This document shows, one piece after another, positions 56,226-58,902 of a DNA stretch of 64,000 nt; position 1 is the first letter of the stretch, and every line of letters starts with the position of its first letter. The stretch comes from an uncultured Candidatus Rokubacteria bacterium (lineage in GTDB: Bacteria; Methylomirabilota; Methylomirabilia; Rokubacteriales; CSP1-6): NCBI GenBank assembly GCA_963707305.1, contig CAVPPZ010000004.1, positions 298,590 to 362,589 of the forward strand, read 5' to 3'. The notes under the pieces were generated by a model. It was not told where the DNA came from. It saw only the letters and a program-made list of their open reading frames with translations, and did no database searches. Position numbers and translations under genes: made by a program.

Positions 56226-56345
56226 CCGGAGGGGGGCTTCGCCCCCCTTCCGGCGGTCGTCGCGCGCCTGACGGCGCGCTCCTCCCTGCCTCCCCCAGGA
56301 GGATTGCGGCGGCAAAGCCGCCGCTCGGAATCCGCGGATCAATCG
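56226..56345. repeat. Left copy of a ~110-120-bp inverted-repeat element. Begins with the hairpin CCGGAGGGGGGC-TTC-GCCCCCCTTCCGG and contains a second hairpin GCGGCGGC-AAA-GCCGCCGC
   Basis: Immediately after the DGQHR stop. Its reverse complement matches 58780-58902 at roughly 85%, read by eye. Confidence 0.6.
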
Positions 56346-56460
56346 CGTCTGCCTTCTCGTCGCCGAGCGATGGCAGATTCCTCGTCCGGAAGCGCTCCGA
56401 AGAATCGCGTAGGCTTCCAGGTGAGATGGTGGCATCGGGATCGCATGGCGCGGAGGCGGG

Positions 56461-58650
56461 ATGAATCCGGCGGATCTTGAAGCACTCGCGCGCGGGGCGC
56501 ATGCAGATCCCTTCAGTCTGCTTGGGCCCCACGTCGTCGACAGCGAGCTCGTCGTTCGCGCGGTGCTGCCGTGGGCGGCCAGCGCGCGCGTCGTCGTCGA
56601 CGGGGCCGGGCCGCCGCGCGAGATGACGCGCCGCCACCCGGGAGGCGTGTTCGAGGCCCGGCTCCCCGACGTGCATGAGCGCGCGCCCTATCACATCGAC
56701 GTGACCGACCGCGGCGGACGCACGGTCACGGTCGACGACCCCTACCGGTTTCCGCCCGCGCTGACCGAGTACGACCTCTACCTGCTCGGCGAGGGACGCC
56801 ACCACAACGCGGACGAACGCCTCGGCGCCCACCGGCGCAAGCTCGAGGGGGTCGTCGGCGTGGCCTTCGCGGTGTGGGCGCCGAACGCCCAGCGGGTCAG
56901 CGTCGTCGGCGACTTCAATAGCTGGGACGGGCGCGTGCACGTCATGCGGCGGCATCCCGGGAGCGGCATCTGGGAGATCTTCCTCCCGGGTGTCGAGGAC
57001 GACGCGCGCTACAAGTACGAGATCCTGTCCGACGCCGGCGTGATCCTGAAGGCGGATCCGTACGCGTTCGCGTTCGAGCCGGAGCGTCCGCGCACGGCGT
57101 CGGTCGTCTGCGACCTCGACACCTACCGGTGGGACGACACCGACTGGATGCGCGAGCGCGCCCAGCGCAGCGCGCTCGACGCGCCGATCGCGATCTACGA
57201 GGTGCACCTCGGCTCGTGGCGCCGCGTCCCGGAGGAGGACAACCGTTCCCTCACCTACCGCGAGCTCGCCGAGCAGCTGCCGGACTACGTGACGCGACAT
57301 GGGCTTCACGCACGTCGAGCTCCTGCCCGGTCACCGAGCACCCGTTCTACGGGTCGTGGGGCTACCAGCCGCTCGGCTACTTCGCGCCGACGCGCCGCTA
57401 CGGCGAACCGGCCGACTTCATGGCGCTCGTCGACGCGTTCCACCGGCGCGGCATCGGCGTGATCCTCGACTGGGTGCCCGCGCACTTCCCGCGCGACGCG
57501 CACGGGCTCGCGTTCTTCGACGGCACCCACCTCTACGAGCACGCCGATCCGCGGCTGCGCGAGCACCCGGACTGGGGCACGCTGATCTTCAACTACGGGC
57601 GCAACGAGGTGGCGAACTTCCTGCTCACCAACGCGCTCTTCTGGCTGCGCCGCTACCACGTGGACGGCCTCCGCGTCGACGCGGTCGCGTCGATGCTCTA
57701 CCTCGACTACTCCCGCAAGCCCGGCCAGTGGCTGCCCAACCGGTACGGCGGCAACGAGAACCTCGAGGCCATCGCCTTCCTCAAGCGCTTCAACGAGACC
57801 GTGTACGCGGAGCAGCCCGGCCACGCTCACGGTCGCGGAGGAGTCGACGTCGTGGCCGATGGTGTCGCGGCCCACGTACCTCGGCGGGCTCGGGTTCGGG
57901 CTCAAGTGGAACATGGGCTGGATGCACGACGTGCTGCGCTTCTTCTCCCGCGACCCCGTGCACCGCCGGTTCCACCAGAGGGAGCTCACCTTCGGCTTGA
58001 TGTACGCGTGGAGCGAGAACTTCGTGCTGCCGCTGTCCCACGACGAGGTGGTCCACCTCAAGGGCTCGCTCCACCGCAAGATGCCCGGCGACGACTGGCA
58101 GAAGTTCGCGAACCTGCGCGCGCTCTACGCGTACATGTACGCCCATCCCGGCAAGAAGCTCCTGTTCATGGGCGGCGAGCTCGGACAGACGCGCGAGTGG
58201 AACCACGACGCGAGCCTCGACTGGCACCTGCTGCGCGAGGGCCCGTATCACGCGGGCCTGCAGCAGCTCGTGCGCGATCTCAACCGGGTCCTTCGCGCGG
58301 AGCCTGCGCTGCATCAGCGGGATTTCGAGCCCGCCGGCTTCGAGTGGATCGATCTCACGGATGCCGACCACAGCACGCTGTCGTTCCTGCGTCGCGCGCG
58401 CGACCCGGACGACGTGGTGATCGCGGTCTGCAACTTCACGCCGGTGCCCGCGCACGGGCTACCGGGTCGGCGTCCCGTCCCCCGGCTACTACCGCGAGCT
58501 GATCAACACGGACGCCCTCGAGTACGGCGGCAGCGGAGTCGGCAACCGCGGCGGCGTCCACGCCGAGCCAACGCCGTGGCACGGCCGCCCCGCGTCAATC
58601 CTTCTCGATCTCCCCCCACTCGGCGTGGTCTATCTGAAGCGCTCGTCATG
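56461..58650 (+). CDS. glgB: 1,4-alpha-glucan branching enzyme, at least 4 frameshifts
   Basis: [90 protein letters not shown]-terminal VVYLKRS. Confidence 0.75.
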
Positions 58651-58779
58651 AGGCAGGCGGCCTGAAGCGCTCGGCGTGAGGTGCGTGATCACGTCTCGCG
58701 GTCACGCGGCCCGAGCGCGCGTCGGATCGATTCCTAGCGCTGCTCCGCCGACATCACTCCTGTTGCTCAGCGGAGCCCG

Positions 58780-58902
58780 ATGAGATCAGCAGTGTCCGAG
58801 CGCGGGCTTCGCCCGCGCAATCCTGCTGCTGGGGGGAGGCAGGGAGGAGTGCGCCCTCAGGCGCGCGACGACCGCCGGAAGGGGGGCGAAGCCCCCCTCC
58901 GG
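58780..58902. repeat. Right copy (inverted) of the repeat element. Ends with the hairpin CCGGAAGGGGGGC-GAA-GCCCCCCTCCGG and contains GCGGGC-TTC-GCCCGC with compensatory stem changes relative to the left copy
   Basis: Ends 1 nt before the stop of the convergent HDOD gene, so it sits exactly between glgB and that gene. Confidence 0.6.

Follow-up and report, generated by a model that had tools for sequence, protein, structure and literature searches.

The closest described counterparts of the intergenic element considered here are the repetitive extragenic palindromic (REP) sequences and the bacterial interspersed mosaic elements (BIMEs), the intrastrand triplex repeats BoxC/PIT/TMECO, reportedly described by Hoyne in 2000 and treated by Holder in 2015 (PMC4666352), the miniature inverted-repeat transposable elements (MITEs), and intrinsic terminators. 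REPs are usually present in more than 100 copies per genome. The element was noticed as two inverted copies around glgB in a 64,000-nt stretch of contig CAVPPZ010000004.1 (hereafter, the window), and homologues of the neighbouring HDOD gene place the window within Rokubacteria. Rokubacteria, which have large genomes, abound in soils and groundwater and are uncultured; to our knowledge, nothing is known about how their transcripts are ended or stabilised. We show that each of the two belongs independently to a multi-copy family of modular intergenic repeats that is almost confined to Candidatus Rokubacteria (Methylomirabilota). The modules follow each other in the order hairpin 1 (H1, arms GGAGGGGGG/CCCCCCTTCC), an optional ~35-nt hairpin-2 module (module B), the C-run CCTCCCCCC, a linker, and hairpin 3 (H3). 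H1 is a 28-nt G/C hairpin; H3 has the end motif TCGAA and occurs in three covarying variants. The element appears to vary on known kinds, combining a REP/BIME-like build with a triplex-type core like that of BoxC/TMECO, and to be undescribed: no published description of it was found in the Rokubacteria literature on REPs, intergenic repeats or coding density.

Like REPs and BIMEs, the element is a short, GC-rich, imperfect palindrome that is extragenic and multicopy, is built of mosaic modules and carries compensatory changes (PMC2817692), and it is frequently placed within 15 nt of a stop codon (PMC12306157). It also agrees with the description of REPs as imperfect 20-40-nt extragenic palindromes, as H1 has 28 nt, H3 has ~19-25 nt and the four window copies, like the sampled ones, lie between open frames. 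In contrast to REPs, the Rokubacterial element has no GT(A/G)G head, and no gene for a REP-associated tyrosine transposase (RAYT) was found near ~240 of its copies. REPs are species-specific, whereas this element is conserved across a phylum-level lineage. About 65% of its copies are within 10 nt of a stop codon, compared with 11% of RepRanger-predicted E. coli REPs within 15 nt. BIMEs consist of alternating REPs with linker motifs, whereas H1, module B, the C-run and H3 are different sequences in a fixed order and orientation.

The BoxC/PIT/TMECO repeats are likewise G/C-rich and intergenic, and contain three consecutive 8-9-nt blocks (purine, pyrimidine and third strand) separated by short loops; they share with our element highly conserved stems, variable loops, an occasional arrangement in inverted pairs, and no association with phages or plasmids (PMC4666352). 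The triplex-motif definition (stems of 6-15 nt, loops of 1-6 nt) covers the short form of the element, whereas the long forms, including both window copies, exceed it. Unlike in TMECO, the second 'loop' of the long form is ~40 nt and holds a hairpin (module B), and the TMECO consensus CCCTCNCCC-N3-6-GGGNGAGGG-N3-GGGNGAGGG is not matched (PMC4666352). The block order on the Rokubacterial forward strand is R-Y-Y, compared with C-G-G in TMECO, and the predicted triplex-type core forms part of a longer element that has one or two further hairpins. TMECO shows no bias of orientation or distance to genes (PMC4666352), whereas the Rokubacterial element is strongly biased to stop codons.

With MITEs (Correia/NEMIS, RUP, ERIC) and pneumococcal BOX the element shares a length of ~70-110 nt, intergenic location, an RNA-foldable sequence, a modular build (BOX A/B/C-like) and presence/absence variation. 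It differs from MITEs in the absence of terminal inverted repeats (its ends are CTCGGAGG... and ...GCGCTCGAA), in the absence of a target-site duplication at the site compared between loci L008 and L048, and in that no parent insertion sequence was identified (L-numbers denote loci sampled in this analysis). An intrinsic terminator is also a GC-rich stem-loop just past a stop codon, but the element has no U-tract, is found within operons, and is conserved in sequence as well as in shape.

The window contains two intact and two decayed copies in 64 kb, all four just 3' of a co-oriented stop codon. Their parts are listed below; CM denotes the covariance model.

56224-56330, + strand: left copy, whole long-form element, CM R2 115.5 bits, E=1e-19; after the TGA of a DndB-like gene
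56226-56253, + strand: hairpin 1 of the left copy, CCGG-A-GGGGGGC / TTC / GCCCCCC-TT-CCGG; purine arm GGAGGGGGG from 56228
56254-56288, + strand: module B with hairpin 2 of the left copy; GCGCGCC at 56262-56268, loop TGAC, GGCGCGC at 56273-56279
56289-56296, + strand: C-run CCTCCCCC of the left copy, mirror (parallel complement) of the hairpin-1 purine arm
56306-56330, + strand: hairpin 3 of the left copy, GCGGCGGC-AAA-GCCGCCGC plus the conserved tail TCGGAA
58794-58904, - strand: right copy, whole long-form element, CM R2 114.7 bits, E=1.4e-19; after the TAG of the HDOD gene
58875-58902, - strand: hairpin 1 of the right copy, exact reverse complement of 56226-56253
58840-58874, - strand: module B with hairpin 2 of the right copy, GCGCGCC / GGCGCAC, with a single C.A mismatch
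58831-58839, - strand: C-run CCTCCCCCC of the right copy, read as GGGGGGAGG on the + strand
58794-58818, - strand: hairpin 3 of the right copy, GCGCGGGC-GAA-GCCCGCGC plus the tail TCGGAC
43831-43865, + strand: relative with hairpin 1 alone, its loop enlarged; the TAA (43827-43829) of the open reading frame (ORF) 43077-43829 immediately precedes it
46735-46798, - strand: decayed copy with the hairpin-1 5' arm and a degenerate hairpin 3, end TCGAAC; after the TGA of a permease-like ORF at 46797-47741 (-)

The sequence-only reading of this region had described an inverted pair of two-hairpin elements with compensatory stem changes. Its 28-mer CCGGAGGGGGGCTTCGCCCCCCTTCCGG is indeed found exactly at 56226-56253 (+) and as the exact reverse complement at 58875-58902 (-); further matches with up to three mismatches are absent from the window and from 100 shuffles. 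The homology that it had noted past hairpin 1 was recovered as inverted arms 56225-56296 / 58832-58903 (72 nt, 97%), and a repeat search with pairwise alignment followed the inverted similarity beyond these arms, at 75%, out to 56340 / 58784. The hairpin with compensatory changes is present as GCGGCGGC-AAA-GCCGCCGC at 56306-56324 (+) on the left and as GCGCGGGC-GAA-GCCCGCGC at 58800-58818 (-) on the right, and the diverged hairpin-1 copy at ~43831-43865 is genuine, with a 7-nt insertion in its loop. The count of two hairpins has to be corrected to three, the overlooked one being GCGCGCC-TGAC-GGCGCGC at 56262-56279. Run unfiltered over the entire window, a covariance-model scan added only the fourth, decayed copy at 46735-46798 (-), and with the long-form model (R2) only the two full copies score in the window, at ~115 bits each. 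They are 95% identical over hairpin 1, module B and the C-run, and differ in the linker and hairpin 3. Folding of the window copies gave -63 to -75 kcal/mol (z = -2.4 to -5.9). Two H3-like matches at window positions 30476 and 30771 were rejected as chance, as both are within coding sequence. A search of positions 55000-60000 against Rfam, both strands, at E<=1 returned zero matches.

The family was reconstructed from two independent scans. The exact H1 pattern GGAGGGGGG-N0-8-CTTCGCCCCCCTT, searched on one-genome-per-species contigs, matched at least 119 stretches. Among the matches listed, ~97 are labelled Rokubacteria, Rokuibacteriota or Methylomirabilota and come from ~50 metagenome-assembled genomes (MAGs) from soils, groundwater, Lake Tanganyika and Danish sites. 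The downstream sequence is common to nearly every match, with the short-form consensus nCTCGGAGGGGGGCTTCGCCCCCCTTCCGAAnCCTCCCCCCAGGAtcGaTTGCGCGGGCAAAGCCCGCGCTCGAAC. Three matches, in Desulfovibrionaceae, Geobacter and Thermodesulfobacteriota, are unrelated ordinary terminators with T-tails. The second scan, of metagenome contigs, was anchored on hairpin 3 alone (TTGCGSSGGCNNNGCCSSCGCTCGAA), and found at least 120 contigs with the same architecture and several hairpin-1 classes. The recovery of one family by both scans bears out the suggestion, made on the window alone, of a REP/MITE-like dispersed repeat. Among the matches listed, at least nine copies are found in MNEF01 and five to six in several other MAGs. 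On viral contigs the H3 pattern had no matches, and the H1 pattern had two with long loops that are probably unrelated.

Two size classes are distinguished: a short form of 69-78 nt (54 copies) and a long form of 103-112 nt (32 copies) that includes both full window copies. Module B is present in 32 of 92 complete seeded copies and occupies ~35 nt between CCGA and CCTCCCCCC. Hairpin 1 falls into class A (GGAGGGGGG...), class B (TCGGAGGGGGCC-TCGAC-GGCCCCCTCCGA) and class C (TCGGGGGGAGCG-ACGC-CGCTCCCCCCGA). The flanks are also conserved, with (A/C)CTC ahead of GGAGG and TCGAA past H3, and extra H3 units are arranged in tandem in the same orientation in L030 and L037. A fully palindromic version is found at L147:59-215 and reads as the reverse complement of hairpin 3, GGTGGGGGG, a class C hairpin 1, CCCCCCACC and hairpin 3; its C-run forms Watson-Crick pairs with a G-run lying upstream. 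The usual copies may be halves of such a symmetric (REPIN-like) unit.

Several copies were found on contigs binned as Nitrospirae/Nitrospirota, Elusimicrobia, Deferrimicrobiaceae, Chloroflexi/Chloroflexota or Binatia (L007, L116, L041, L046, L067, L074, L077, L080). They are either mis-binned Rokubacterial contigs or a sign of spread beyond the phylum. L007 and L116, from a MAG labelled Nitrospirae, have a different insert in place of module B and no hairpin 3. Contigs often end in or beside the element (L015, L039, L045, L054, L061, L097, L114 and others), which suggests that it breaks short-read assemblies of Rokubacteria.

The stems are under selection for pairing, as the compensatory changes between the two window copies had been taken to imply; family-wide pairing, shuffle and slide tests bear this out. 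RNAalifold predicts 25 pairs in the long-form alignment, eight of them with double changes and almost none broken. Covarying pairs occur at the hairpin-1 base (U-A in 26 copies, C-G in 5), the closing pairs of module B (G-C/C-G/A-U), hairpin 2 (G-C/A-U) and hairpin 3. For the pairing test, 103 H3-seeded metagenome copies were aligned to the short-form model, so that hairpin 1 is unbiased. In these copies 97.5% of stem cells pair, compared with 89.1% in shuffles (none of 500 shuffles reaches 97.5%), and 15 of 20 pairs show double changes; slid-partner controls pair at 45-56%. The H3 scan pattern allowed any S/S combination at two variable positions of the hairpin, and the variable dinucleotides are complementary in 122 of 123 H3-seeded and 93 of 95 H1-seeded copies, with three to four pair types.

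The position of the copies relative to genes is highly regular. The stop of an open frame of at least 60 codons lies 2-10 nt upstream of the purine arm in 66 of 100 H1-seeded and 49 of 77 H3-seeded copies; at random positions in the same DNA this frequency is 4.9%. Neighbour orientation, assigned from window-based frame calls plus direct stop-codon tests, is the same as that of the element for the upstream gene in 68 cases and opposed in 23 (3:1), and is unbiased for the downstream gene (54 vs 45). Co-oriented genes on both sides were found for 41 of 91 classified copies. Copies are also found within operons, as in L008 (infA-[element]-rpmJ-[element]-rpsM), where the second copy ends ~16 nt before the rpsM start. 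Ahead of the purine arm, positions -10 to -5 form an AT-rich 6-nt spacer and positions -3 to -1 are CTC. The element-adjacent stops are TAG in 57 cases (50%), TAA in 31 (27%) and TGA in 27 (23%), whereas crude gene calls at the same loci gave 575 TGA (56%), 340 TAG (33%) and 109 TAA (11%). The shift from TGA may reflect an effect on termination or a TA-containing insertion target. In many copies a further stop, out of frame, lies in the spacer (TAGnTGACTC, TAGnTAACTC).

Copies in the minority orientation face a divergent gene, whose start codon is 3-21 nt from the hairpin. Reversed copies before start codons were observed in L001, L011, L012, L071 and ~20 more loci, for example CCCCCCTCCGAGCAAC-ATG with the N-terminus MKIGIVGAGAM. 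No Shine-Dalgarno sequence is present between the hairpin and the start in the reversed copies; the sole sequence resembling one is GGGGGGAGG, beyond the hairpin. Folding would bring GGGGGGAGG to about 6-14 nt from the AUG as a hairpin-bridged Shine-Dalgarno sequence.

Comparison of syntenic loci revealed filled and empty sites in five pairs (L008/L048, L113/L062, L236/L169, L157/L236, L055/L173). The cleanest is a 103-nt insertion between infA and rpmJ in L008 relative to L048, and a check for a target-site duplication at this pair, as the sequence-only reading had proposed, found none. One orthologous site may carry different forms (short in L026, long in L083) or different classes (class A long in L069, class C in L205/L213), and the site of the decayed class A copy of the window (46735) holds a class C copy in L128. 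Copies are thus gained, lost and replaced over ~70-85% nucleotide identity, which makes the family a mobile one, now or in the past. Neither the window nor 1.57 Mb around ~240 copies yielded a RAYT/Y1 transposase; in tblastn, E. coli RayT matched only at noise level (E>4). A motif scan of the 1.57 Mb for HxH...NP[LV][RK]xG open frames was likewise negative; both results are weak negatives. Inverted pairs at the RAYT-like spacing of 0.6-0.9 kb were absent among the sampled loci.

The C-run has a further relation to hairpin 1. CCTCCCCCC is the same-direction plain complement of the purine arm GGAGGGGGG, not its reverse complement, and so mirrors the Watson-Crick arm, the layout of an intrastrand triplex. 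The short-form block order is GGAGGGGGG - CTTCG - CCCCCCTTCC - (G)AAn - CCTCCCCCC, and the reverse strand gives the purine-motif counterpart GGGGGGAGG-n-GGAAGGGGGG-loop-CCCCCCTCC. Scored by distinct arm/run class, the parallel register beats the antiparallel one in 22 of 24, and scored by parsed copy in 181 of 183. Coordinated variants include the triple GGAGGGGAG / CTCCCCTTCC / CCTCCCCTC in L122 and GAGGGGGG with CTCCCCCC in L152; the arm GGGAGGGGG is accompanied by the run CCCTCCCCC in L203 and by CCCACCCCC in L179. In an unbiased sample, the lengths of arm and run agree (G5 with C5, G6 with C6) in 27+19 cases and disagree in 6+5. The insertion point of module B is precisely the linker that joins the Watson-Crick arm to the C-run, and covarying pairs close the module.

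The genes around the two window copies are as follows.

55085-56223, + strand: DndB-like gene with single-base indels, orthologous to DndB-family genes of relatives; TGA at 56221-56223, then the left copy
56461-58665, + strand: glgB (branching enzyme; domains GlgB_N, CBM_48 and alpha-amylase); it does not belong to the element
58904-59776, - strand: HDOD/HD-domain gene; TAG at 58906-58904, then the right copy

The DndB-like and HDOD genes are convergent across glgB, and the window copies are inverted around glgB because these stop-bearing neighbours point towards each other. The closest glgB-bearing relatives were compared by their gene maps. Relatives with HDOD identity of 86-87% have the layout of the window, HDOD -> <- glgB (728 aa, intact) <- DndB. 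At 68% HDOD identity (the P0022 contigs) glgB overlaps HDOD by 4 nt, which leaves no room for an element, and at 67-69% (L120-L123) HDOD and DndB have no glgB between them. The HDOD side of L122 has no element; at the DndB stop L122 has a long-form element alignable with the left copy of the window. Both L122 and L123 keep a DndB-side copy at the same stop codon as in the window, though they lack glgB. The gene ends overlap in L246, and in L247 HDOD is followed by a diverged element. With copies from a Lake Tanganyika MAG and from a groundwater MAG the right copy shares 91% identity overall, and with the left copy only 85%. What replaces glgB is a 295-nt spacer in L122/L123, and a 4HBT thioesterase gene with a spacer in L120/L121. 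The slot between the convergent HDOD and DndB genes is variable regardless of the repeat.

We favour, as likely, a reading in which the window holds independent members of the family that function at the 3' ends of genes. In the window the left copy goes with the DndB-like gene's 3' end and the right copy with that of the HDOD gene. In three quarters of cases the element would be co-transcribed with the upstream gene, so that stable hairpins (-50 to -75 kcal/mol) could form at the very start of the 3' untranslated region or of an intercistronic spacer. The stem-loops could act like enterobacterial REPs by blocking 3'-5' exonucleases, and could define or protect the mRNA 3' end. Hairpin 1 is predicted to start inside the footprint of the terminating ribosome and could modulate translation termination of the upstream gene; in E. 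coli, REPs with under 16 nt between them and the stop codon stall ribosomes and lower translation (PMC12306157). Several points weigh against this explanation. The function of any copy is purely inferred. About a quarter of the copies are reversed and abut a start codon. Orthologous sites of relatives are found without copies, which implies that no individual copy is essential. Mismatches do not show an RNA-type wobble asymmetry (10 forward G.T vs 19 forward A.C), so the pairing constraint could act on DNA as well as on RNA. Because no transposase was found, the term 'mobile' draws solely on presence/absence patterns.

Some of these points fit a purely selfish, non-autonomous (REPIN/MITE-like) element whose hairpins are recognised on single-stranded DNA by an HUH/Y1 enzyme (RAYT or IS200/IS605 TnpA-like), an explanation that we regard as possible, though doubtful. 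Stop adjacency would then result from a preference for AT-rich targets in a 70% GC genome combined with purifying selection against insertions within genes, in line with the AT-rich 6-nt spacer, the conserved CTC ahead of H1, and the excess of TAG and TAA among the adjacent stops (57/31/27 TAG/TAA/TGA vs 340/109/575 in crude gene calls). Syntenic presence and absence, different classes at one site, the near-perfect Watson-Crick stems without wobble asymmetry and the palindromic version in L147 also favour it, and the absence of a target-site duplication at the cleanest pair is as expected for the IS200/IS605 type. However, neither the 1.57 Mb around the copies nor the window contained a RAYT/Y1 transposase, and the GT(A/G)G head is absent. 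H1 is identical across soil, groundwater and lake MAGs, whereas REPs co-evolve rapidly with RAYT (PMC2817692). Insertion at the DNA level would not by itself be expected to give the 3:1 orientation bias to the upstream gene. Selfish spread partly overlaps with a 3'-end function; the two are compatible and not separable on present data. Very stable GC hairpins directly past stops, mostly co-oriented with the upstream gene, and tail-to-tail pairs between convergent genes could alternatively be factor-independent terminators adapted to high GC (I-shaped, without a U-tail) and possibly bidirectional. The bidirectional Rho-independent terminators suggested earlier would fit poorly with elements that lack a U-tract, occur within operons and show a 3:1 orientation bias rather than symmetry. 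A T-run is absent after every hairpin (the tails are TTCCGG and TCGGAA), a terminator scan of 55800-59300 gave zero sites, copies lie between infA, rpmJ and rpsM within a ribosomal-protein operon (L008), nearly half of the classified copies (41/91) have co-oriented genes on both sides, and a terminator has no need for three modules or a conserved C-run. We consider this explanation distinctly unlikely.

An intrastrand triplex (or H-DNA) of the BoxC/PIT/TMECO kind, with H1 and the C-run forming a three-stranded structure, would account for the mirrored blocks but seems to us unlikely. The forward strand would follow the pyrimidine motif 5'-R-Y-H-3' with C+.G-C and T.A-T triads, and the G-rich reverse strand the purine motif with G.G-C and A.A-T or T.A-T triads. 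Such a structure could pause polymerases or nucleases or promote rearrangement and, as RNA, could form a 3'-end triple helix. The consistent parallel complementarity (181/183 copies, 22/24 classes), the coordinated variants in L122, L152, L203 and L179, and the tracking of G5/G6 arms by C5/C6 runs speak for it, as do the covarying closing pairs of module B, which keep the ends of the arm and the C-run together. The odd T or A in the C-run fits the opposite-strand purine motif (A.A-T or T.A-T), and G/C-rich repeats that fold in vitro into intrastrand triplexes have been documented in bacteria (PMC4666352). The signal, however, comes mostly from two large subfamilies (A and B) with few independent events, and L199, L129 and L219 are counter-examples. 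In the class C run CCCCCCACC the A may belong to the next stem, and the support from this class was down-weighted. At neutral pH a row of eight C+.G-C triads is unfavourable, and RNA is reported not to support purine-motif triplexes (PMC4666352). The CCU of the run can instead pair with AGG in the downstream linker. That H1 and the mirrored C-run make a genuine three-stranded fold placed right after stop codons is quite improbable. Finally, the two copies could delimit, as inverted ends, a composite transposon or recombination substrate by which glgB is moved, inverted or deleted, given that they are inverted 2.5 kb apart, that some relatives as well as the window have glgB between HDOD and DndB, and that it is missing in L120-L123. 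The absence of glgB from some relatives, which the sequence-only reading had proposed to check, is real, but L122/L123 keep the DndB-side copy at the same stop without it, and an inversion was not seen, as the orientation of glgB does not differ among the relatives that carry it. In addition, P0022 offers no space for an element where glgB overlaps HDOD by 4 nt, the copies are anchored to the stops of the neighbours and not to glgB, and they differ in linker and H3, each being closer to copies of other MAGs than to its partner. We therefore give this explanation hardly any credence, and a composite transposon, an invertible segment or a recombination cassette at glgB was rejected on the layouts of relatives and the copy identities. 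The repeat has no special link to glgB, which is an incidental bystander.

For the window, this removes the suggestion of glgB as a mobile or invertible cassette. The family-level regularities (phylum-wide conservation, stop anchoring and three-way covariation) are more notable than the local arrangement at glgB. Being phylum-wide, constrained in structure and 2-10 nt past the neighbouring stop in two thirds of cases, the repeats offer a handle on mRNA 3'-end formation, termination context and intergenic repeat dynamics in Rokubacteria. In practice they could serve as a taxonomic marker for binning and as a warning for assemblers and gene callers. The mirrored blocks with three-way substitutions provide a natural test of triplex selection in bacteria. 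If the three-stranded fold were real, the mRNA would carry a hairpin-plus-tail triple helix (C+.G-C / U.A-U) capping its 3' end, a bacterial counterpart of the ENE/MALAT1-type structures, and the G-rich single-stranded DNA would form a purine-motif triplex that stalls polymerases. It would amount to a phylum-wide, orientation-dependent triplex punctuation of gene ends, where the reversed copies would place GGGGGGAGG and a hairpin just before start codons.

Both genes on the + strand show frame changes in the window. glgB has at least three, near 57250, 57790 and 58420, and is intact in relatives (728-732 aa). The DndB-like gene has ~7 single-base indels relative to the intact L122 orthologue, and its last 58 residues match at all but one position. 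These changes look like errors of an error-prone (long-read) assembly rather than decay, and the C5 vs C6 difference between the C-runs of the two copies may therefore be an artefact. A 20-nt direct repeat, CTGAAGCGCTCGTCATGAGG / CTGAAGCGCTCGGCGTGAGG (90%), occurs at 58634-58653 and 58662-58681, 28 nt apart. It straddles the apparent 3' end of glgB and may be a small duplication of that end.

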